In this document: piece after piece, positions 44,211 to 64,000 of the stretch
Layout: each line of letters starts with the position of its first letter
Numbering within the stretch: position 1 is the stretch's first letter
DNA from: an uncultured beta proteobacterium
GTDB taxonomy: Bacteria; Pseudomonadota; Gammaproteobacteria; Burkholderiales; Casimicrobiaceae
Assembly (NCBI GenBank): GCA_963763625.1
Contig: CAVXPH010000003.1
Location: forward strand, 327,615 to 391,614
Direction: 5' to 3'
DNA: 64,000 bases
Made by a program: the position numbers and the translations under genes
The notes under the pieces: generated by a model
Told to the model about the DNA's origin: nothing
Databases searched by the model: none
The model's input: the letters and a program-made list of their open reading frames with translations, nothing else

Positions 44211-45603
44211 TTCCAATGGGGTGTGAGCCTGAAGGCTGGATCGTGTTTCCAATGGGGTATGAGCCTGAAATGAGGTTTTTGGATCGATCATCACAGCATG
44301 GTGATCGATATGAACGATGTGCAACTCGTCACCCTCGAGCAGTTGCGAGGGTTTTTGGCCGGCGCCGTCGACCTCGGCCTCACCCCAACGGCCGACGCGG
44401 TGGCTCGCTATGGCCATATCAAGAGTGTGCTCAAGCGGTTCAAGTATCCGCTGCAGAGCAAAGCCCACCGCGGCTTGATCCGCCGCTATCTGCGGCGGGT
44501 GACGGGCTATTCGCGCCCGCAGCTCAGCCGCTTGATCGCGCAGTACCTGCACAGCGGACGCCTGGTGCAGCGCTACCGAGCCACCACGACGTCCTACGCG
44601 CGCAAGTTCACCCCGGAAGACATCGTGCTGCTCGCCGAGCTCGACAGCCTGCACGGCACGCTCTCCGGCCCAGCCACCCGGGTGCTGCTGCAGCGCGCTT
44701 TCCACCGCTTTGGCCAGGCCAGCTATGAGCGACTGGCCACCATTTCGGTCTCGCATCTATACAACCTGCGGGCAAAGCCCCTCTACCAACAGCGCCGGGT
44801 CCATTACAGCAAGACCCAGACCCGGCCCAGCAGCATTGGCATCCGGCGCGCGCCCGCTCCCGAAGGTCGTCCCGGGTTCATCCGCATCGACACCGTCCAT
44901 CAGGGTGATCACGACGGCCTCAAGGGGCTCTACCACATCAATGCCGTCGACATCGTCACCCAGTGGCAGTTGGTCGCCAGCTGCGAGCGTATCAGCGAAG
45001 CCTATTTGCTGCCCGTGATTGCCGAGCTCCTGGCCGGCTTCCCCTTCGTGGTCCAGGGCTTTCATTCCGATGGCGGCGGCGAGTACATCAATCACGACGT
45101 GGCCCAGCTGTTGGAGAAACTACGCGTCGAGTTCACTCGCTCCCGACCGCAGCACACCAATGACAACGCCCTGGTGGAAAGCAAAAACGGCAGCGTCATC
45201 CGCAAACAGTTCGGCTACGCCCATATCGCCCAGCGCTTTGCCCGTGACATGAATGCCTTCTGCCGCGACTTCCTCAACCCCTACGTCAACTTCCGCCGCC
45301 CCTGCTACTTCTCCATCGAAGAGGTCGACGCCAAAGGCAAGATCCGCAAGCGCTATCCGCACCAGCTCATCATGACCCCGTTCGACAAACTCAAAGCCCT
45401 GCCACCACCGCTCATCAACCTCGCACCCGGCATCACCTTCAGGAGCCTCGAACACCAAGCCCACCAAATGACCGATAATCAAGCCGCGAAGGCCCTGACC
45501 GACGCCCGGTCAAGGCTCTTCCAATCCATCCACCGTCGATCCAAAGCCGTTGCTTGACTCACCTACGAGACCTACCGAGTTCAGGCTCATACCGCTATTG
45601 GAA
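44211..45603 (+). mobile_element. insertion sequence (about 1.4 kb) with an rve-type transposase and imperfect terminal inverted repeats
   Basis: Left end TTCCAATGGGGTGTGAGCCTGAA (44211-44233) is repeated as TTCCAATGGGGTATGAGCCTGAA (44247-44269). The right end (45580-45603) reverse-complemented reads TTCCAATAGCGGTATGAGCCTGAA. I could not identify clean target-site duplications. Confidence 0.7.
44298..45557 (+). CDS. DDE transposase/integrase (rve catalytic core)
   Basis: 419 aa. The integrase core is IRIDTVHQGD...INAVDIVTQW...GFHSDGGGEYIN...RSRPQHTNDNALVESKNGSVIRK (D, D, E spacing). An N-terminal HTH-like region precedes it. Confidence 0.85.
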   Translation: MVIDMNDVQLVTLEQLRGFLAGAVDLGLTPTADAVARYGHIKSVLKRFKYPLQSKAHRGLIRRYLRRVTGYSRPQLSRLIAQYLHSGRLVQRYRATTTSYARKFTPEDIVLLAELDSLHGTLSGPATRVLLQRAFHRFGQASYERLATISVSHLYNLRAKPLYQQRRVHYSKTQTRPSSIGIRRAPAPEGRPGFIRIDTVHQGDHDGLKGLYHINAVDIVTQWQLVASCERISEAYLLPVIAELLAGFPFVVQGFHSDGGGEYINHDVAQLLEKLRVEFTRSRPQHTNDNALVESKNGSVIRKQFGYAHIAQRFARDMNAFCRDFLNPYVNFRRPCYFSIEEVDAKGKIRKRYPHQLIMTPFDKLKALPPPLINLAPGITFRSLEHQAHQMTDNQAAKALTDARSRLFQSIHRRSKAVA

Positions 45604-48464: not shown

Positions 48465-49463
48465 CTACGCCGTGCGCGCCGCCTCGACCATGGTCCGGAA
48501 TTTCTTGACGTTGTCCTCGCCGGCGTAGGCTGCGATGCGCTTGTAGGCGGGCTCCATCTTGGCCCGAAACGGCGCGAGGTCGGGGCGCGTGATCTGCATG
48601 CCGGCCGCTGCGAGCTTGACCAACTGGTCGGCCTCACCCTCGGCGATGAGCTTGCGCATGAGGTCGCCGGCGGCGGCGCTTTCCTCGCGGAAGATCGCCT
48701 GCTGCGCAGGCGTCAGCTTCTTCCACGAATTGACGCCGATGGTGTGGATCATGTTGTTGTAGATGTGCCGGGTCAGCGCGAGATGCTTCTGCACCTCGTA
48801 GAACTTGCTGTAATAGATCACCGGAATCGGGTTTTCCTCGCCGTCGACGACCCCCTGCGAGAGCGCGAGGTAGAGCTCAGGAAACGCAATGGCCTGTACG
48901 GTGGCACCGAGCGCCTCCATCGAAGCCTGGATCTGCAACTCGGGCGGCGTGCGGATCTTGAGCCCCGCAACATCGGCGGGGACGTTGATCGGGCGCACGC
49001 CGTTGGTCACGTTTCGAAACCCGTATTCCCAGTTGTGCAGCAAGATGAAGCCCTGCTTCTCGGCAAGCGGCGCAAGCCAGTCCATCGCCGGCCCGTCGAG
49101 GACTCGAAATACCTGAGCCGGGCTGTCGAAGATGAACGGCAGCATGACGGCTCCAAACGCGGTGTCGTACTTGTCGAGCTGTCCCTGGGTGGGCAGTCCC
49201 ATGTCGATCGTTCCGAGCTTGATCTGCTGCGCCTGCTCCGGCGGCCCGCCGAGCACGTTGTTGGGAAAAATGTTGATCTTGATCGCGCCGTTGGTACGCA
49301 TCTCGACCCGGCTCGCAAACTGCTTGGCCGCAATATTGGCCGGATGATCTTCCGGTGCAAAGTGCGCCCAGCGCAACGTCAGCGGCGCCTGCCCGCGCGC
49401 AACGTAGGGAGTGGCCAGCGACGCTGCGGCGCTGGCAGTCTTCAGAAACCTTCTGCGGTCCAT
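48465..49463 (-). CDS. TRAP transporter substrate-binding protein (DctP family), Tat-like leader
   Basis: MDRRRFLKTASAAASLATPYVARG leader. DctP-family body (FPNNVLGGPPEQAQQIKLGTIDM..., PELYLALSQGVVDGEENP). Confidence 0.88.
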   Translation of the reverse strand: MDRRRFLKTASAAASLATPYVARGQAPLTLRWAHFAPEDHPANIAAKQFASRVEMRTNGAIKINIFPNNVLGGPPEQAQQIKLGTIDMGLPTQGQLDKYDTAFGAVMLPFIFDSPAQVFRVLDGPAMDWLAPLAEKQGFILLHNWEYGFRNVTNGVRPINVPADVAGLKIRTPPELQIQASMEALGATVQAIAFPELYLALSQGVVDGEENPIPVIYYSKFYEVQKHLALTRHIYNNMIHTIGVNSWKKLTPAQQAIFREESAAAGDLMRKLIAEGEADQLVKLAAAGMQITRPDLAPFRAKMEPAYKRIAAYAGEDNVKKFRTMVEAARTA

Positions 49464-54350: not shown

Positions 54351-55097
54351 TTACTGCTTGCGGCGCGAGAAGCCAAGTCCGGCGAGGCCGAGGCCGAGCA
54401 GCGCCAGCGTGGCGGGCTCTGGGACGTTATGAATATCGAAGCTCAGGTCCTGATACTGCGTCACGAAAGTGAAGGTTCCCGTCTCAGCGGCGCCGACTGT
54501 TGTAATTTGCGTGAGCCCGAGCACTATCGGATCGCCGTCGAAGTTCGGATTCGTCGTACCAAACAAGCCGGTCGCAAAGTTGAACTCAAGAAAATTCGAG
54601 GCCACCAAGTCGGATTGCGAGAAGGAATTAAACCCGGTTCCGCCGGGGTTGTTGGGGCCGTCGAAAACCGCTCCAGGAATTGCTGCCGCGTAGTAGAGAC
54701 CATCCTGCAAGATCGTAGGGCGAAACGTATTGCCAAAGCCGGTGCCCGTGACAGTTGTTATGGCGTTCTTAAGCGCCGAAGCATCGATCGAGTTGATCGC
54801 ACCCTGGGTCGACGGATCATAGTCGAAGGTGTTGTTGGTTAGTCCCTGTGCGACCATATGGGTCGTGAGAGTTCCATCCAAAGTGTAGCTCGCCGTGAAC
54901 TGCAACGTGTCGGCCGGAGTGGCCGGGTTCGCATAAACGATGCTCGCGGAGGAGTCCGAAGAATAGGTCGGGCTTGCCGAGTAGCTGGCAAGGCTCATAG
55001 TATTATCGGTGAAGAGCACGTCGGCGGCGGCTGGCCCCGCGCCCGCGACGATTGCTAGCACTGCCGCCAAGGCAAGACGCGTCCGCAGGTACTTCAT
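54351..55097 (-). CDS. PEP-CTERM sorting-domain protein (secreted, exosortase substrate type)
   Basis: ORF trimmed to ATG 55097 (GGAGG RBS). Signal peptide MKYLRTRLALAAVLAIVAGAGPAAA. The C-terminus VPEPATLALLGLGLAGLGFSRRKQ is a canonical PEP-CTERM motif. Confidence 0.88.
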   Translation of the reverse strand: MKYLRTRLALAAVLAIVAGAGPAAADVLFTDNTMSLASYSASPTYSSDSSASIVYANPATPADTLQFTASYTLDGTLTTHMVAQGLTNNTFDYDPSTQGAINSIDASALKNAITTVTGTGFGNTFRPTILQDGLYYAAAIPGAVFDGPNNPGGTGFNSFSQSDLVASNFLEFNFATGLFGTTNPNFDGDPIVLGLTQITTVGAAETGTFTFVTQYQDLSFDIHNVPEPATLALLGLGLAGLGFSRRKQ

Positions 55098-55142
55098 TGA
55101 GCCTCCATTCATTATCGGAAAATGAGCCAATGTTATCCGGCA

Positions 55143-55158
55143 TGCAAGTACGATGCCA
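55143..55158 (-). promoter_or_regulatory. sigma-54 (-24/-12) promoter candidate for the PEP-CTERM gene
   Basis: The minus strand reads TGGCAT-cgtac-TTGCA against the consensus TGGCAC-N5-TTGCW. It lies 45 nt upstream of ATG 55097. Confidence 0.55.
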
Positions 55159-55610
55159 GTTTCTCTGAACCGCTGCCAATCAGTCACTTAAGGGTGCGTC
55201 GGCACTTCTGGCAATGTGAGCCTGTAAACTTTCCTGACATGTTTCCAGCGACATCTCGGAATCACCGGGATTTGCGAGGCAACCCTGCCACAAAGGCAGA
55301 GCGGGCAACTCGTAGTTGAAGCGATAAGCGAACCCTGTGTCGGTCCGAGGCAATTTAGCCGGGGACGCCGACCGGCTGCGATTGGCCGATTTCGGGACAC
55401 CCACAATCTTTGCGTCGCCCTTTGCAGCGGCGTGGGCTGATCGTACCCTCCGCGGTGTCTCGGCATGAGGCGACGAGTCATGCTTCTGCTGATGGGGGAT
55501 TGCCAGCGTCGGATCGGTCTGACGCCCCGTCGGGAGCATTTGTGGACAAGTTCCCGGAGCGCACACGATGGTCATGTTCGCCGGTCGACAGTACCGGCCA
55601 AGGTATGCCC

Positions 55611-56468
55611 TCAACCTTGGAGCACGCATCTTGCCTTCCAAGGAAATTCGGAACCGTACTTGGCACTCATGAAGGCGTTGCCTTCCTTGAAAAAGCCGAT
55701 CGGCAGGTCTCTATTTCCGCGCCAGGTATTGTTGCGTTCCGGATGACCATCTATTTTTTCTGCTGGATCGTTGACCGGCCAGACGACGGTCGCACGTCCA
55801 GAGCACATATAAGGGGCGTTCGATCTGCGTAACGCGTCGAACAGCACCCGGTCGCTTGCCTTGCGCATCTTGGGATCGAGCCGGTGCTGGACCAGTTGCC
55901 CCCCGACGACGGGTGCCAGTTCTCGCGATATCAGATAGCAGTTCGTATCAACAAGATTGGACCACGGTCGAGGGGGCTGTACTCCTCGCGTGTCGGCATC
56001 TCTCTGAAACACCCACGAGGCCTCCGGGCCAATGCTTTCGCAGTTGTCGTCAACAGACTCCCCGGTGGTTAGGTCCACGACCTTGCGTTGCGAAAAGGCC
56101 CACTGCAGCTTGTTGCTTTCACACAAGCTCAGCAATTCCTCGATGTGATCGGGCTCCTGGTAGGCGTCCTGGTCCAGAAATGCGATCCACGGCGTATCGA
56201 CGATCATCATGCTCATCGCGTAGATGCGATAGCCATAGAATTCGCTATGGCCAGTATTCCAGGGCAACTCGAGAATCTGGCGTTTGGAATCGATTGCACC
56301 CAGATGCGGAACGACCTTCGAGTCGAATTCGCGCTTGAAGGCGGGGCCATCGACACACAACAAATGCATCGCTTGCTTGCACGTCTGGGCAGCCACGCTT
56401 GAGATGGCCCGCAGAATGGACTTGCTGCCGGTGCAGGCTGACACCACCGTTACCTTGTCGTCACCCAT
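55611..56468 (-). CDS. GT-A-fold glycosyltransferase-like protein (family-2-like), lower-GC gene
   Basis: VTVVSACTGSKSILRAISSVAAQT..HLLCVDG and the DxD-like IAFLDQDAY fit a GT2-type N-terminus. The remainder is unrecognised. My hand counts on two 60-nt lines give about 53-55% GC. Confidence 0.5.
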   Translation of the reverse strand: MGDDKVTVVSACTGSKSILRAISSVAAQTCKQAMHLLCVDGPAFKREFDSKVVPHLGAIDSKRQILELPWNTGHSEFYGYRIYAMSMMIVDTPWIAFLDQDAYQEPDHIEELLSLCESNKLQWAFSQRKVVDLTTGESVDDNCESIGPEASWVFQRDADTRGVQPPRPWSNLVDTNCYLISRELAPVVGGQLVQHRLDPKMRKASDRVLFDALRRSNAPYMCSGRATVVWPVNDPAEKIDGHPERNNTWRGNRDLPIGFFKEGNAFMSAKYGSEFPWKARCVLQG

Positions 56469-59057: not shown

Positions 59058-60277
59058 GCCTGTGTCGTCTCCGCCTGGCGCGTGGGCGTCGGCGCAGCGG
59101 CGCTGCCCTGCAGGTACTCGAGCGCAGCCTGGATTCCACCGGGCCGGTGCGGCACGCCGCTGGCTCCCAGTCCCATCTCGACGCCGCACAGCGTGCCGCA
59201 GAGCATGAGGTCGTTGAAGAAGCCAAGGTGGCCGATGCGGAACACGCGCCCCGCGAGCCGTCCCAGTCCGGTGCCGAGCGACAGGTCGAAGCGTTCGAGC
59301 ACCCGGCGGCGGAACGCATCCGCGTCGTGGCCTTCGGGCATCACGATCGCGGTCAACGAGTCGCTGTACTCGGCGGGGTGGCGGCACAGGATCTCGAGTC
59401 CCCAGGCGCGCGCCGCGCGCCGCGTCGCCTCGCCGTGACGATGATGACGCGCGAAGACCGCCGGCAGTCCCTCCTCGAGCAGCATGGCGATCGCCTCGTG
59501 CAGCCCGTAGAGCAGGTTCGTCGGCGGCGTGTAGGGAAAGGACCCGTCGCGGTTCGCAGCGACGATCTCCTCCCAGCTCCAGTACGAGCGCGGTAAACGC
59601 GCGCTCCGGTTCGCCGCGAGCGCCTTGTCGCTGATCGCGTTGAAGGACAAGCCGGGCGGCAGCATCAAGCCTTTCTGCGAGCCCGCGACCGTCACGTCGA
59701 CGCCCCACTCGGCGTGGCGATAGTCCATCGACGCGAGTGAGGAAATCGTGTCGACCATGAACAGCGCCGGATGCCGCGCGCGATCGATTGCCTGGCGGAT
59801 TTCCGCGATGCGGCTGCTGACCCCGGTCGAGGTCTCGTTGTGCACGACCAGCACCGCCTTGAACCCGTGTGCGCGGTCCGCGACGAGCTTTTCTTCGACC
59901 ACGGCCGGATCGACGCCGCTGCGCCAGTCACCGCTGACAAACTCGACCTCGAGCGAGAGGTTTCCGGCCATCTTGCGCCACAGCGTTGCGAAGTGTCCGG
60001 TCTCGAACATGAGCACGCGGTCGCCCGGGGAGAGCGTGTTGACCAGTGCCGCCTCCCACGCCCCGGTGCCCGACGCGGGATAGATGACCACCGGCCCGGC
60101 GGTCTTGAAAATCGACTTCAGTCCGTCGAGGATCGTCCGCGTCAGACGCGCGAACTCGGGCCCGCGGTGATCGATGGTGGGGTGATCGATCGCCCGCAAT
60201 ACCCGGTCGGGAACGTTGGTGGGCCCGGGAATCTGCAGGAAATGGCGACCGCTGGGGTGATCGTCGAGGCGAAGCAT
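59054..60277 (-). CDS. class V aminotransferase (serine/alanine-glyoxylate aminotransferase type)
   Basis: The 525-aa ORF is trimmed to ATG 60277. FLQIPGPTNVPDRVLRA...YPASGTGAWEAAL...HNETSTGV...VAGSQKGLMLPPGLSF contains the PLP-lysine motif. Confidence 0.88.
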   Translation of the reverse strand: MLRLDDHPSGRHFLQIPGPTNVPDRVLRAIDHPTIDHRGPEFARLTRTILDGLKSIFKTAGPVVIYPASGTGAWEAALVNTLSPGDRVLMFETGHFATLWRKMAGNLSLEVEFVSGDWRSGVDPAVVEEKLVADRAHGFKAVLVVHNETSTGVSSRIAEIRQAIDRARHPALFMVDTISSLASMDYRHAEWGVDVTVAGSQKGLMLPPGLSFNAISDKALAANRSARLPRSYWSWEEIVAANRDGSFPYTPPTNLLYGLHEAIAMLLEEGLPAVFARHHRHGEATRRAARAWGLEILCRHPAEYSDSLTAIVMPEGHDADAFRRRVLERFDLSLGTGLGRLAGRVFRIGHLGFFNDLMLCGTLCGVEMGLGASGVPHRPGGIQAALEYLQGSAAAPTPTRQAETTQA

Positions 60278-60309
60278 AAGGCTACCCTGGTGGCAGACAA
60301 CACCCCATT

Positions 60310-61413
60310 CTATCCGGACAGCGCTTTGGCCGCCGCGTACATGCGCTTGGTGCGGATCGCCACGTCGTCCGGGGCGATGGCCTCGGCGCGGGCATAGTGC
60401 GCCGCGCTTTCGGCGTAGCGGCCGAGATGAAACGCGCACAGGCCGAGCGCCGCATGCGCGTTGGCGCCAAAGATCGACGCGTCGTAGGCCAGCTCGCCGT
60501 CGTCGAGTAGGGCGGCATCGGTCGCGGCGAGCTTGGCGAACAGCGGCATGGCCTCGGCGTATTGGCGCCGTCCGACCAGGTTCTGCGCGAGGAGCCAGGT
60601 CAGTGCGTGATTGTCGGGAAACCAGCGACAACCCTCGTCGAGCAGCGCAGTGGCGTCACGCTGCCCTTCGAGCAGGTGCCGCGCCAGGTGCAGGTGCGGC
60701 AGGCTGTCCCCCGAAGTCCGCGACCGCAGTTCGCGCACGACCTCGACGCCTTGTTGCCACGCGGCTTCGGCGCCGGCAAGGTCGCCCTGTGCGGCGAGCG
60801 TCGCACCCAGATGCGCCAACGTGTAGACATGCTTCGGCTCGCTCCGCAGCCGCGCGCGCAGCAGCGGCAGATCGCGCGCGGCCTTGGCCTGCGGGTCGGC
60901 GTAGCCGTAGTGCTCGAGCGCGACCGTGCTCGCGCCCACGCGAAGGCCCTCACGCTGACGCAACGCCGTCAATGCTGGAATCAGGCTCTCATGGATGACG
61001 CCGCGGAAGCGCAGGTCGGGACGGTTGCGAAACAGCCGGTGCTCGCGATAGCGCGTGTAGCCGGCGCGCGGCCGCAAGCGCACCGTGTAGCACGCGGTAC
61101 GTGCATCGGCGAGATCGGCCTCCACGGCGGCGCGGTCGAAGGCGACGACCTCTTCGTCGGCGTCGATGTAGAGGATCCACTCCCCGGACGCGGCGTCGAG
61201 CGATGCATTGCGCGCGGAGGAAAAATCGTCAGTCCAGGCGCGGTGCAGGAGGCGTGCACCGAATCTCTTCGCGATTTCAGGCGAGCGATCGGTCGAACCG
61301 GTGTCGACGACCACGATCTCATCGACGCGGGCGGCGAGGGAGCGCAGGCAGGTCGCGAGAAACCGCTCTTCGTTGCGAACGATCAGTGCCGCGGAAAGCA
61401 GCGGGCGCGGCAC
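60310..61413 (-). CDS. family-2 glycosyltransferase with a C-terminal TPR-like helical domain (SunS-like architecture)
   Basis: LIVRNEERFLATCLRSL..VDEIVVVDTGSTDRSPEIA...WTDDFSSARN...EWILYIDADE, then HRLFRN.PDLRFRGVIHE, then about 200 aa of helical repeats. GTG start. Confidence 0.8.
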   Translation of the reverse strand: MPRPLLSAALIVRNEERFLATCLRSLAARVDEIVVVDTGSTDRSPEIAKRFGARLLHRAWTDDFSSARNASLDAASGEWILYIDADEEVVAFDRAAVEADLADARTACYTVRLRPRAGYTRYREHRLFRNRPDLRFRGVIHESLIPALTALRQREGLRVGASTVALEHYGYADPQAKAARDLPLLRARLRSEPKHVYTLAHLGATLAAQGDLAGAEAAWQQGVEVVRELRSRTSGDSLPHLHLARHLLEGQRDATALLDEGCRWFPDNHALTWLLAQNLVGRRQYAEAMPLFAKLAATDAALLDDGELAYDASIFGANAHAALGLCAFHLGRYAESAAHYARAEAIAPDDVAIRTKRMYAAAKALSG

Positions 61414-61449
61414 GCCGGCAGCCGGGTCGCTGCGGATGCGGTCGCGGCC

Positions 61450-61725
61450 CTAACGGTCGCGGCGGCGGCGTAGCAGAAGGGTCGCGGCGGCGCCGATCGC
61501 GGCGGCCATCGCGGTTAAGGTCCAGCCGGAGCTCGCCGGCACCGATTGTGGGAGGGTCTGATTTGGCCCCTGCGCCTGAGCCACGCCCTCGAGGCTCTGC
61601 ATCGAGAAGGATGCAATCAGCGGCGCGCTGTACAGCACGGTTCCGGCGAGTATCTTGCGCAGTGCCTCCCGGCGGCTGGGATCGACGCGTTCGAGGAAGC
61701 GTTCGAAGCGGGGATTGGTGCTCAT
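61450..61725 (-). CDS. small (91 aa) protein with a Tat-like N-terminal signal and a PEP-CTERM-like C-terminal TM + Arg cluster
   Basis: High-GC3 coding-like codons. GAGG lies 9 nt upstream of the ATG. The sequence is MSTNPRFERFLERVDPSRREALRKILAGTVLYSAPLIASFSMQSLEGVAQAQGPNQTLPQSVPASSGWTLTAMAAAIGAAATLLLRRRRDR. Confidence 0.6.
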   Translation of the reverse strand: MSTNPRFERFLERVDPSRREALRKILAGTVLYSAPLIASFSMQSLEGVAQAQGPNQTLPQSVPASSGWTLTAMAAAIGAAATLLLRRRRDR

Positions 61726-61801
61726 CGATGGACCTCGTTCAAGGGTTGTCGCGCACGGCTGGCCGGATATTCCACCCTAAGCCTAGATAACACATCGCGT
61801 T

Positions 61802-62089
61802 TCAGCCGGCAAGGCGTGGGTCCTTGCTCACCAGCAGGCCCTCTTCGAGGAGCTTGGCCAGGCAGCTTTCGACTTCTGCCACCGGGGGCGCGTCGAGCCG
61901 GAACGCGGCGGCGAGCAGCTCCGGCAACTCGCGCGCCGGGATGTTTCCGTCGCAGCTTTCGAGCAGCATGGTCGCCGTCGGATTGAGGTAATGGAGCCGG
62001 TCGCGCGCCGGGTCGTAAGCGACGAAGCCATCGCTCACCTCGCGGATCTCGATATCCGGCGCACGTTGCGCGCGCATCTCCCAATCCAT
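61802..62089 (-). CDS. PqqD-family protein (RiPP recognition element / peptide chaperone type)
   Basis: 95 aa. EVSDGFVAYDPARDRLHYLNPTATMLLESCDGNIPARELPELLAAAF......VESCLAKLLEEGLL fits the PqqD winged-helix pattern. Confidence 0.78.
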   Translation of the reverse strand: MDWEMRAQRAPDIEIREVSDGFVAYDPARDRLHYLNPTATMLLESCDGNIPARELPELLAAAFRLDAPPVAEVESCLAKLLEEGLLVSKDPRLAG

Positions 62090-62132
62090 GCTTGATCGCC
62101 TCAGCGCCGATTGAGAATTCTAGCGCAATGAT

Positions 62133-62795
62133 ATGCTAGCTTTGATCGCAGAATTCATGCAAGCGGCCTACGCTCCCGAGGCGCTTCGCGCCTCTCTTCG
62201 CACCCGCATCGAGGCATGCATCGTCTCGCTGCACGGTTGGACCACGGTCGACAAGGGACTGCGTCTGGCCGAGCTGGTCGTCGGCGCGCAGGCCGGCCTC
62301 TCCGTCGAGCTCGGCGTGTTTGGCGGCCGGGGAACGATCTCCATGGCGATCGGCCACGAGGCGCTCGGCAGCGGCTGCGTCGTGGCCGTCGACCCGTGGG
62401 AAAGGGCCGCCTCGCTCGAGGGCGTGAACGCACCGGAAAACGACAAATGGTGGGGCGGGCTCGACCATGAGGCGATCTACCAAAGCTTCGTCAGGGCGCT
62501 CGCCGAATCCCGGGTCGAACCGTACTGCCGCGTGTTGCGCCTGCGCTCACAAGTCGCAGCAGACCGCTTCGGCGATGGCTCGATCGCTGTCTTGCACCAG
62601 GACAGCAACCATTCGGTAGAGGTTTCGGCGACAGAGGTCGCGCTGTGGACCCCGAAGCTTTGCGCCGGCGGCTACTGGGTGGCCGACGACACCGACTGGG
62701 TCACGACCGAGCGGGCGCAACGCCTGCTGCAGGAGAAGCGCTTCGCCATCGTGGAGGAGTACCCGAACTGGAAGGTATTTCGCAAGGAGATGTAG
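62133..62795 (+). CDS. class I SAM-dependent methyltransferase (Methyltransf_24 / CmcI-like)
   Basis: Motif I-like VELGVFGGRGTISMA, then acidic VAVDPW and LHQDSNHS. 220 aa. Confidence 0.5.
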   Translation: MLALIAEFMQAAYAPEALRASLRTRIEACIVSLHGWTTVDKGLRLAELVVGAQAGLSVELGVFGGRGTISMAIGHEALGSGCVVAVDPWERAASLEGVNAPENDKWWGGLDHEAIYQSFVRALAESRVEPYCRVLRLRSQVAADRFGDGSIAVLHQDSNHSVEVSATEVALWTPKLCAGGYWVADDTDWVTTERAQRLLQEKRFAIVEEYPNWKVFRKEM

Positions 62796-62798
62796 GCG

Positions 62799-63773
62799 AT
62801 GAGTGGTGTTGTGGCGACGCTTGTCTACCCGACCTATCGCAACGAGCCTGGGTTTGAATGGTTTGCCGACAGCCTAGCGGCGCAACTCGACCCCGGCGAC
62901 GACATCGAGCTGATTCTGGTCGACGGAGCGCACGATCGTGAACGTGCAGAACGCTTCGCCTGCGCGGTAGCCGGACGCGTGACGCTGCGCCACGTTGCGG
63001 CCAAGCCCTCGCCGTACAACGGCGCCAACCGGCTGACGCGGCGCAACCTCTTCGCCGCGGCGAGCGCCCGCAACACCGGCCTTGTTTATGCAAGCAAGCC
63101 GTACGTCATCTTCGTCGACGACGCCTGCGTGCTTGCCGAAGGGTGGTGGCGGGCGGCGCGCGAAGCCGTAGCCGCCGGCCGGGTTGTCACCGGGGCGTAC
63201 CGCAAGGATTGGGGCATGGAGGTCTTGCGTGGCGTGCTGGTTAACCGTCGCTCGCGCTCCGGGCTGGACTCGCGCTGGCCGCAGGGCGACGACAGCGGCC
63301 CGGTCCGCGTCGGGGGCGGGCAGCTTTTCGGCGCCAGCATCGGTGCCCCGCGCGACCTGCTGCTGCAGGTAAACGGCTTCGACGAGCTGTGCGACGCGAT
63401 CGGAGGCGAGGACTGGCAGCTCGGCGTCCGGCTCGAGTTCGCCGGCGTGCCGATCTATTACGATCGGAGGATGCTGAGCATCGAAAGCGAAGACCTTCAT
63501 CGCCGCGGAGTGCCCTTCGCCCGCATCGATCCAACCTTGCCTGCCGCGGCATACCTTGAGCGCCTCGGGGAATTCGGCGTCCACCGGCGGCACATTCCAG
63601 GGGCCTGCGACAGCTCGCACATGCTGCTCGACGTGGTTTATGGCACCGAGTCGGTACAGACGCAGGGCAATTATTATTGGCTTGCGGACCTGACTGAAGC
63701 CACGCTCGCGGCGACCACGCGGCGCTTTCCACGCCGGCACTGGTTCGACCGGCGGCCGCTCTGCGATCTGTGA
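62799..63773 (+). CDS. GT-A-fold glycosyltransferase-like protein
   Basis: VATLVYPTYRNEPGFEWFADSLAAQ...IELILVDGA and the DxD-like IFVDDAC. It starts 4 nt after the methyltransferase stop. Confidence 0.5.
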   Translation: MSGVVATLVYPTYRNEPGFEWFADSLAAQLDPGDDIELILVDGAHDRERAERFACAVAGRVTLRHVAAKPSPYNGANRLTRRNLFAAASARNTGLVYASKPYVIFVDDACVLAEGWWRAAREAVAAGRVVTGAYRKDWGMEVLRGVLVNRRSRSGLDSRWPQGDDSGPVRVGGGQLFGASIGAPRDLLLQVNGFDELCDAIGGEDWQLGVRLEFAGVPIYYDRRMLSIESEDLHRRGVPFARIDPTLPAAAYLERLGEFGVHRRHIPGACDSSHMLLDVVYGTESVQTQGNYYWLADLTEATLAATTRRFPRRHWFDRRPLCDL

Positions 63774-64000
63774 CGACCGTGGTGCGCCAGCGGCGTCTGC
63801 TTTCGCGCGGCGACATCCCGGGCAGCGACGGCGGCATCTACAATCCCGGCGCACTGGCGCGGGGACCGAAGGTCATCCTGCTGTGCCGACGCGAGATCGA
63901 CTATCGTTTCTCGCCGATCGTCCACGCCGAACGGATCCTGCTCGATTCCGAGACGTTGTCGGTGATTGAGCACGGAACGCTGCTCCGGCGCGGCTTCCCG
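63770..64000 (+). CDS. partial CDS (5' end only), possibly a GH130 / DUF377-like glycosidase-phosphorylase
   Basis: GTG 63770 overlaps the previous stop (GTGA). My translation MTTVVRQRRLLSRGDIPGSDGGIYNPGALARGPKVILLCRREIDYRF... is open to the window end. The pattern IYNPGA...ILLCRRE resembles GH130-like N-termini. Confidence 0.4.
   Translation, partial: MTTVVRQRRLLSRGDIPGSDGGIYNPGALARGPKVILLCRREIDYRFSPIVHAERILLDSETLSVIEHGTLLRRGFP

Follow-up and report, generated by a model that had tools for sequence, protein, structure and literature searches.

The window analysed here is a stretch of 64,000 nucleotides (nt) from an uncultured beta proteobacterium of the Casimicrobiaceae (contig CAVXPH010000003.1). 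Close to its end, three genes on the reverse strand form a cassette that encodes a PqqD-family protein, a peptide of 91 amino acids (aa) and a glycosyltransferase with GT2 and TPR parts (GT2-TPR). We propose, with a probability of roughly 0.6, that the 91-aa peptide is the substrate of this cassette, in which the PqqD-like protein would act as chaperone and the GT2-TPR enzyme as peptide glycosyltransferase, and that the modified peptide is exported and tethered to the inner membrane. The features of the cassette are as follows.

61802..62089 (-): opening gene of the cassette, encoding a PqqD-family protein of 95 aa that scores 29.2 bits with Pfam PqqD (cut-off 23.4)
61733..61736 (-): ribosome-binding site GAGG, 7 nt 5' of the ATG of the precursor, as seen in the sequence itself
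61450..61725 (-): gene of the precursor (91 aa, with its stop codon), comprising leader, core and sorting tail
61573..61725 (-): leader, residues 1-51, with n-region helix, twin-arginine motif, h-region and AxA site, delimited by alignment and profile search
61543..61572 (-): core QGPNQTLPQS, residues 52-61, a variable linker with the highest ratio of nonsynonymous to synonymous substitution rates (dN/dS), disordered in the AlphaFold model
61555..61563 (-): N55-Q56-T57, candidate modification site, Asn55 being invariant in the family alignment A1
61453..61542 (-): predicted sorting tail of the IPTL-CTERM type, residues 62-91, with VPASSGW, a transmembrane helix (69-85) and RRRRDR
60310..61413 (-): GT2 (GT-A, DAD motif) plus TPR glycosyltransferase of 367 aa, third gene of the cassette (Pfam Glycos_transf_2, 76.7 bits, and TPR)

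The precursor gene and its neighbours

Translation of the precursor open reading frame (ORF) gives MSTNPRFERFLERVDPSRREALRKILAGTVLYSAPLIASFSMQSLEGVAQAQGPNQTLPQSVPASSGWTLTAMAAAIGAAATLLLRRRRDR. It matches exactly the initial annotation, made from the sequence alone, which had described a 91-aa ORF composed almost wholly of sorting signals, separated by no more than 10-20 residues, and had placed SRREALRK at residues 17-24. AQA occupies residues 49-51 and QGPNQTLPQS residues 52-61. A search of 5.8 billion proteins yielded 54 homologues with identities of 56-97%, every one of them 80-125 aa in length. M1, L11, P16, Y32, A34, P35, S39, L45, G47, A51, Q52, N55, P63, A80 and R87 are invariant in alignment A1, where the RR pair is nearly invariant, the Arg-cluster columns are invariant or nearly so and Q56 is conserved to at least 90%. 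For 14 orthologues extracted from genomic loci, the overall dN/dS is 0.36, and close pairs give 0.15-0.29; the leader has the lowest regional value (0.28) and the core the highest (0.67), with the tail at 0.42. Ribosomal precursor peptides are expected to show such a combination of conserved leader and variable core.

The precursor ORF is a real conserved gene under purifying selection. The region is GC-rich with many spurious ORFs overlapping there, as would be expected if the reading frame had arisen by chance, but the 54 homologues of constant length, dN/dS well under 1, the ribosome-binding site and the conserved operon position speak against a chance origin, which we regard as refuted by the homologues and dN/dS. 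Conservation of the reading frame had been put forward as a check in the initial annotation, and it is borne out with dN/dS values of 0.15-0.36.

The AlphaFold model of the precursor, generated from the family alignment, contains only helices (residues 5-13, 16-52 and 67-90), with residues 53-66 disordered, and shows no folded passenger domain; its confidence is low (pLDDT 60) and hence no inference was drawn from the fold. Relatives are annotated in public databases as 'hypothetical protein', sometimes with names based on the tail. A Pfam match of residues 41-89 to CoA_transf_3 (20.3 bits against a cut-off of 23.3) was judged spurious because the region is Ala-rich. Positions 60000..62400 were scanned for promoters, of which none was detected, and for terminators, where a single weak candidate 3' of the glycosyltransferase gene is within chance expectation.

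The PqqD-like gene lies 76 nt upstream of the precursor on the same strand. Its product is predicted to be a peptide chaperone carrying a RiPP-recognition element (RRE; RiPP, ribosomally made peptide that is modified after translation). The best NCBIfam match, TIGR04353 (HPr-rel-A PqqD), reaches 22.6 bits and is below threshold.

The GT2-TPR gene starts 36 nt downstream of the precursor and encodes an enzyme predicted to be soluble and cytoplasmic. Its sequence matches in the Protein Data Bank (PDB) are GmaR (5.7e-27), the ThuS-type entry 7msk (2e-18) and SunS (2e-13), of which Listeria GmaR is a flagellin O-GlcNAc transferase and the other two are S-glycosyltransferases of glycocins. The AlphaFold model of the enzyme has a pLDDT of 95.4, and its top six Foldseek matches in the PDB are ThuS/SunS structures (E ~1e-18, TM 0.65, both domains covered), with the next match (1e-8) ten orders of magnitude weaker. 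The metal and nucleotide-sugar motif D84-A-D86-E87 is invariant among 31 homologues. Judged by its predicted structure, the enzyme has the peptide glycosyltransferase fold of ThuS and SunS. At one related locus (L003, 10279..11418), the GT2-TPR gene call is just 255 aa long and covers the TPR part; tblastn aligns all 367 residues there with 82% identity, and the short call is probably due to a mis-called start or a frameshift.

A pattern built for the leader motif alone, from a 13-sequence alignment (A3), was searched in 185,579 species-representative genomes and identified 20 loci, all from metagenome-assembled genomes (MAGs), in Acidobacteriota, Thermoanaerobaculia, Alphaproteobacteria, Betaproteobacteria, Actinomycetota and Nitrospinota. 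MAGs in which the arrangement of the cassette is repeated belong to the Betaproteobacteria, Alphaproteobacteria, Actinomycetota and Thermoanaerobaculia. A PqqD homologue is present within 10 kb of the leader module in all of the 26 loci analysed. In 21 of them, the precursor is followed downstream by a full-length homologue of GT2-TPR (40-93% identity), and no further conserved neighbour was found at these loci. The order PqqD-like, precursor, GT2-TPR is kept across loci whose other genes differ completely: the cassette is flanked by a protocatechuate operon with an IclR regulator at several loci and by uvrC and a DUF454 gene at another. Among the five loci where GT2-TPR was not detected, two stop at contig ends, L028 before the expected start of the gene and L029 after its first 32 residues, and three (L011, L013 and L025) carry other enzymes.

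The constant pair of leader and PqqD-like protein, combined with an exchangeable tailoring enzyme, follows the logic of an RRE-dependent RiPP system. Features of such systems that are found here include a short precursor encoded beside a PqqD-type RRE protein and an enzyme, a conserved leader, a variable core and tandem copies of the precursor. The initial annotation had suggested a minimal sorted and possibly glycosylated peptide, which agrees with the gene context, but it had overlooked the flanking PqqD-like and GT2-TPR genes. With these neighbours, a dedicated cytoplasmic RiPP-like modification would be the likeliest source of any glycosylation.

Several variants of the cassette were observed. 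In the Acidobacteria version (L031, 2155..7555; L011, 4148..7810; L013, 9724..13380), the precursor is 215-221 aa long with a Ser-rich linker, and the place of GT2-TPR is taken by LicD followed by a fusion of an NTP-transferase with a threonine-phosphate-decarboxylase-like (CobD-like) part. The linkers at L011 and L013 contain no Asn motif. Together, the LicD and fusion enzymes and the Ser-rich linker suggest a phospho-alcohol modification of Ser. A Nitrospinota locus (L025, 546..3236) encodes a precursor with a Met-rich SPM-repeat tail, a PRMT-like methyltransferase and a PqqD protein, as well as an HprK-related-kinase-like protein that matches TIGR04352 below threshold (48 bits). At several alphaproteobacterial, actinomycete and metagenomic loci, an HprK/ScmC-like P-loop protein is inserted between PqqD and the precursor, with an NTP_transf_5 gene added in some of them. 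Tandem precursors occur as four copies of 54-63 aa in L015, as three intact copies and a truncated fourth in L014 and as two copies in L017. In the arrays of L014 (10001..10917), L015 (3623..4534) and L034 (7747..8174), where the HprK/ScmC-like protein separates PqqD from the precursors, the mature parts are predicted to be just 6-8 residues long (YTSNTT, YTSNAF, YTGNLL and QSGNQSS).

Leader, core and sorting tail

In the leader, the twin-arginine motif occupies residues 17-24 (S17-RREALRK24) and is followed by an h-region (residues 25-42) with a mean Kyte-Doolittle value of 1.57, as compared to 1.86 for the transmembrane segment of the tail. The h-region holds Y32-x-A-P35 and S39-F-S-M42. A signal-peptidase site of the AxA type (A49-Q-A51) after this mildly hydrophobic stretch is a feature of the layout used for twin-arginine translocation (Tat) and is present in the window protein. 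Relative to the twin-arginine consensus S/T-R-R-x-F-L-K, the window motif S-R-R-E-A-L-R-K retains RR and L, with F replaced by A and K by R; the family consensus is S-R-R-D-F-L-R-K.

Comparison of the relatives reveals a module of about 55 aa with the consensus ..ERVLERVDPSRRDFLRKLL.GAAFAAPVVASFSMDGL....A.AQ.SNQT., in which RR, P and SF(S)M are nearly invariant and are followed by AxA and then by Asn. RR, P and S/T are each found in 130 of 131 representatives and F in 125, and Ala occupies position -3 of the AxA site in 99 and position -1 in 93. A family profile searched against 1.84 billion cluster representatives detected the module (E <= 1e-3) in at least 137 clusters, counted at 50% identity, from several phyla. 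Many of these match profile positions 1-57 alone and have quite different C-termini, which range from very short peptides stopping a few residues after an Asn, through repeated GSNQ(T/S) or GNMT units and DUF11 repeats or other domains, to bona fide IPTL-CTERM tails. Among Pfam and NCBIfam models, the only one to cover the module is TIGR01409 (TAT_signal_seq; cut-off 16.7 bits), which one relative passes at 16.8 bits and another just misses at 15.6 bits.

From these comparisons the leader appears to have the layout of a twin-arginine signal and to be a family-specific conserved module, not a generic Tat signal. The Tat-like leader of the initial annotation can therefore be kept as far as the twin-arginine layout and the relatives at the TIGR01409 cut-off are concerned, but not as an ordinary Tat signal. 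Members of the family with DUF11 domains or bona fide IPTL-CTERM tails imply export, for which we infer dependence on Tat and a cleavage site after AQA in the precursor. Canonical twin-arginine signals are present elsewhere in the window, in MTSRRSFLKTAGAVTAGLGAAS (33032 (+) onward) and at the start of a TRAP solute-binding protein (48465..49463 (-); MDRRRFLKTASAAASLA), so that ordinary Tat signals, too, seem to be in use in this organism.

The core would be the sole exposed part of the precursor after export. An Asn follows the SFSM motif in 130 of 156 representatives (mutual similarity below 60%), mostly 11-14 residues on, giving a sharp peak. N-x-S/T sequons are enriched about two-fold, 103 being observed as compared to 47 +/- 6 in shuffled sequences (maximum 68 in 300 shuffles). 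In several sub-families two Cys frame the motif, as in LCQNQTLGTC and QCANQTGPC; the window precursor has zero Cys. The invariant Asn55, the sharp position of the Asn, the sequon enrichment and the Cys framing point to Asn55 or a neighbouring Ser/Thr as the likeliest modification site. General periplasmic N-glycosylation of NQT by an enzyme of the OST/PglB type is a further possibility, which was set aside because a dedicated cytoplasmic glycosyltransferase is encoded next door.

Five metagenomic proteins with the leader (P0084, P0114, P0163, P0184 and P0187) have cores built of repeats such as GSNQ(T/S)HG, GGSNQ, GNMT(T/A)PM and YGSNM, suggesting multiple modification sites per peptide.

The tail contains an Ala-rich transmembrane segment of 17 residues (69-85; mean Kyte-Doolittle 1.86) and ends with RRRRDR as its last six residues. 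As in the IPTL-CTERM layout, the very end of the protein is formed by a motif, a transmembrane helix and a basic cluster, and P63 of the motif is invariant. Three orthologues from the same type of cassette (L020, L021 and L022), approximately 56% identical to the window protein, pass the IPTL-CTERM model TIGR04174 with 29.2, 25.2 and 38.5 bits (cut-off 20.5), and their motifs read VPTTSPW, VPTTSEW and IPTTSEW, respectively, in place of VPASSGW of the window. A 360-aa member of the wider leader family passes it as well, and a 90-aa relative (P0240) is named by NCBI as an IPTL-CTERM sorting domain-containing protein. The model NF033207 (midcut_by_XrtH) scores 23.4 bits with the window protein, and such sub-threshold matches recur at model positions ~7-64, covering signal, short linker and IPTL-like tail.

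An exosortase-type C-terminal sorting tail, as described in the initial annotation, is supported by the motif, the transmembrane helix, the Arg cluster and the orthologues that pass TIGR04174. A reading of VPASSG as a new substrate class does not hold: since orthologues of the same cassette reach 25-38 bits with TIGR04174, VPASSGW is best read, from sequence comparison, as a diverged IPTL-CTERM-type motif. Matches of the tail to LPXTG, MYXO-CTERM, GVDTG, Loki-CTERM, VPXXXP-CTERM and PEP-CTERM families are sub-threshold and driven by the transmembrane segment and Arg cluster, and were rejected because the orthologues pass IPTL-CTERM instead. The precursor has no match to TIGR02595 (PEP-CTERM) at E <= 1.

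Only two ORFs in the window end in a hydrophobic helix with a basic cluster, namely the precursor and 54351..55187 (-). The latter, at about 7 kb, had rightly been recognized as a canonical PEP-CTERM protein (278 aa; TIGR02595, 29.6 bits; cut-off 16); it also has sub-threshold matches to the flocculation PepA and EDSAP-1 families. A 285-aa ORF whose function is not known (55611..56468 (-)) adjoins it, and no exosortase is nearby. From this neighbour, the initial annotation had presumed that the organism encodes an exosortase, but a PEP-CTERM protein is uninformative on the cognate sortase of an IPTL-type tail. An exosortase was observed neither in the window nor in the 10 kb around any of the related loci.

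Proposed modification and export of the peptide

In the pathway that we propose, the cytoplasmic PqqD-family protein would dock through its RRE on the 51-residue leader and hand the peptide to the SunS/ThuS/GmaR-like enzyme, which would place a sugar onto the core, most likely at or near Asn55 of N-Q-T. The RR motif, the mildly hydrophobic h-region and the AxA site suggest that Tat would then export the modified peptide, and signal peptidase would cut AQA|Q after A51. The Tat pathway accepts pre-modified cargo. The IPTL-type helix, with its Arg cluster inside the cell, would thereby tether a glycopeptide of about 10 residues to the outer surface of the inner membrane. If the genome has a matching XrtH-type exosortase, cleavage of the tail and transfer of the glycopeptide could follow.

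Several observations weigh against this pathway. To our knowledge, SunS and ThuS function without an RRE partner, and the known relatives of the GT2-TPR enzyme modify Cys, Ser or Thr and not Asn, which makes the acceptor residue uncertain; the first Asn lies in a sequon in only 62 of the 130 representatives, S/T at +2 being missing in about half of the family. The window precursor, with A instead of F in the RR motif, has no TIGR01409 match at E <= 1, and the conservation of the h-region, unusual for a signal peptide, could mean that it is never used as one. The window tail fails the Pfam model IPTL-CTERM (PF18203) with 10.5 bits against a cut-off of 20.8, and the protein has no match to TIGR04174. 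A crude count of hydrophobic segments, applied to the 64-kb window and to the 10-kb surroundings of 35 related loci, found no exosortase-like polytopic ORF, a scan that is not proof of absence from the genome. In addition, no published account of such a cassette was found in the literature searched on RiPP, Tat, glycocin and exosortase topics.

The conservation of the h-region lies far beyond that of normal signal peptides (P 130/131, F 125/131, S/T 130/131), and one may ask whether the leader is of the RiPP type only, with RR and the hydrophobic stretch serving recognition by the RRE or the enzyme and no use of Tat. The universal PqqD partner would suffice to explain the conservation, the AlphaFold model gives one long helix (16-52), the missed TIGR01409 match also fits, and the product would be a helical-hairpin membrane peptide with the core outside or a peptide exported otherwise. 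However, the consensus S-R-R-D-F-L-R-K followed by a mildly hydrophobic h-region and A-x-A fits the Tat layout, relatives stand at the TIGR01409 cut-off, and members with DUF11 or IPTL-CTERM parts need an export signal and contain no other one. We therefore consider it unlikely that the leader bypasses Tat.

A plain small Tat-exported tail-anchored protein, or an IPTL-CTERM exosortase substrate, whose neighbours do not modify it and are linked by co-regulation only, appears less plausible still. There is precedent for Tat-dependent proteins with a tail anchor, the tail shares homology with IPTL-CTERM, and the sub-threshold likeness to midcut-by-XrtH hints that a signal joined by a short linker to an IPTL tail may be a separate architecture. 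This reading is nevertheless difficult to reconcile with an order of three genes that is kept across phyla while the surroundings change, with anchor-less relatives that retain both neighbours and with the peptide glycosyltransferase fold of the enzyme, and we judge it improbable. By analogy to GmaR, which is bifunctional with a second regulatory role and is the best sequence match of the enzyme, the peptide might instead tether the PqqD-like and GT2-TPR proteins to the membrane or regulate them, for instance by bringing the glycosyltransferase to the membrane or by controlling its activity, and TPR domains do mediate protein-protein contacts. The tandem, hypervariable, short and anchor-less versions of L014 and L015 and the combination of conserved leader with variable core suit substrates better, making such a role highly improbable.

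For a peptide modified by its own cassette, the glycocins (SunA/SunS, ThuA/ThuS) are the obvious comparison, as a small ribosomal peptide is encoded there beside a soluble GT-A plus TPR peptide glycosyltransferase, and some sub-families of the leader family, though only some, have the NQT motif in a Cys-Cys loop. In contrast to the helix-loop-helix of glycocins, which has two disulfides and carries its Cys/Ser/Thr acceptor within the loop, the window core has no Cys and is predicted to be disordered. Further differences are the PqqD partner, a twin-arginine leader in place of a double-glycine or other leader, the membrane-anchoring tail and the hosts, which are Proteobacteria, Acidobacteriota and Actinomycetota and not Bacillota; a bacteriocin ABC exporter or immunity gene is not present. 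The N-glycosyltransferases HMW1C/NGT (GT41) resemble the proposed system in that an enriched N-x-S/T would be the target of a cytoplasmic enzyme ahead of export, but the fold here is GT2/GT-A and not GT41/GT-B, the sequon is not obligatory and the Asn acceptor is hypothetical.

The HPr-rel-A system (TIGR04352 kinase, TIGR04353 PqqD) is related through TIGR04353, the best NCBIfam match of the PqqD-like proteins of the window, L006 and L007 (22-29 bits), and, together with lasso-peptide tailoring by HprK-like kinases and NTP_transf_5, through the cassette relatives that insert an HprK/ScmC-like P-loop protein and add NTP_transf_5. All of these scores are below the curated cut-offs, however, the window cassette has no kinase, and no precursor of this kind is tied to HPr-rel-A in the libraries searched. 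Tat chaperone systems (TorD, DmsD, NapD) likewise pair a twin-arginine leader with a small cytoplasmic protein encoded alongside, and export would in both cases follow a cytoplasmic maturation step; here the fold is PqqD/RRE and not TorD/NapD, and maturation would be glycosylation, not cofactor insertion. With Tat-inserted tail-anchored proteins the precursor shares a short exported part followed by a C-terminal transmembrane anchor.

IPTL-CTERM proteins (TIGR04174; PF18203), putative substrates of exosortase H, have the same Pro motif with Trp at +5, transmembrane helix and Arg cluster at the extreme C-terminus. The window copy differs in having VPASSGWT instead of IPTLxxWG and in failing both models, and the protein is nearly passenger-less and encoded in a PqqD/glycosyltransferase cassette, not beside an exosortase. 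Midcut-by-XrtH proteins (NF033207) share this nearly passenger-less architecture, the matches of 16-29 bits extending from the signal peptide over a short linker and an IPTL-like motif to the transmembrane segment and the Arg cluster, but these lie below the cut-off of 45 bits, and the model runs ~110 residues further than the window protein.

All parts of the proposed cassette are known (PqqD RRE, glycocin-type glycosyltransferase, Tat signal and IPTL-CTERM tail); the combination and the leader family match no Pfam or NCBIfam model and no paper searched. The RRE-Finder paper mentions only RRE-glycosyltransferase fusions. It is tempting to speculate that the cassettes represent a widespread unannotated class of RRE-dependent systems in which a conserved Tat signal is itself the RiPP leader. 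In the manner of a proofreading chaperone, the PqqD-like protein would retain the Tat signal while a cytoplasmic enzyme modifies the first mature residues, and Tat export of the finished product would follow. The enzyme would be interchangeable, with GT2-TPR in the window and LicD or an HprK-like kinase at other loci. The GT2-TPR branch would possibly contain the first GT2-fold enzyme acting on Asn of N-x-S/T, and the window version would deliver a glycopeptide of ~10 residues for exosortase-type sorting. We see a substantial chance for this wider proposal, though at less than even odds.

If it is true, two fields with little contact, RiPP biosynthesis and Tat/exosortase export and sorting, would be linked, with one segment of ~50 residues being both recognition leader and export signal, and modification of the cargo before export would provide a testable reason for the use of Tat. 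It would also supply candidate substrates for PqqD/HprK-related cassettes that have no precursor in the libraries searched, a new leader family for genome mining (the 137 or more clusters are nearly all from uncultured soil and water bacteria) and a natural substrate of very small size, exposing ~10 residues, on which the effect of IPTL-CTERM and exosortase on cargo could be studied.

Accessory genes and other features of the window

A divergent operon starts on the opposite side of the PqqD-like gene and continues to the window edge.

62133..62795 (+): Methyltransf_24 methyltransferase, first gene of the divergent operon (Pfam, 51 bits)
62799..63773 (+): second GT2 glycosyltransferase, 324 aa (Pfam Glycos_transf_2, 34 bits)
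63770..64000 (+): start of a GH130-like gene, ending at the window edge (from its translation)

The full-length homologue of the GH130-like gene at locus L001 has a weak Pfam match to Glyco_hydro_130. The Methyltransf_24 and second GT2 genes co-occur with the cassette only in five betaproteobacterial loci, the window included, and the divergent operon (62133..64000) may be accessory to the cassette, extending or methylating the glycan. At a distance from the cassette, a 419-aa ORF (44298..45557 (+)) is transposase/integrase-like and lies in a stretch of shifted GC skew, and may be a mobile element.

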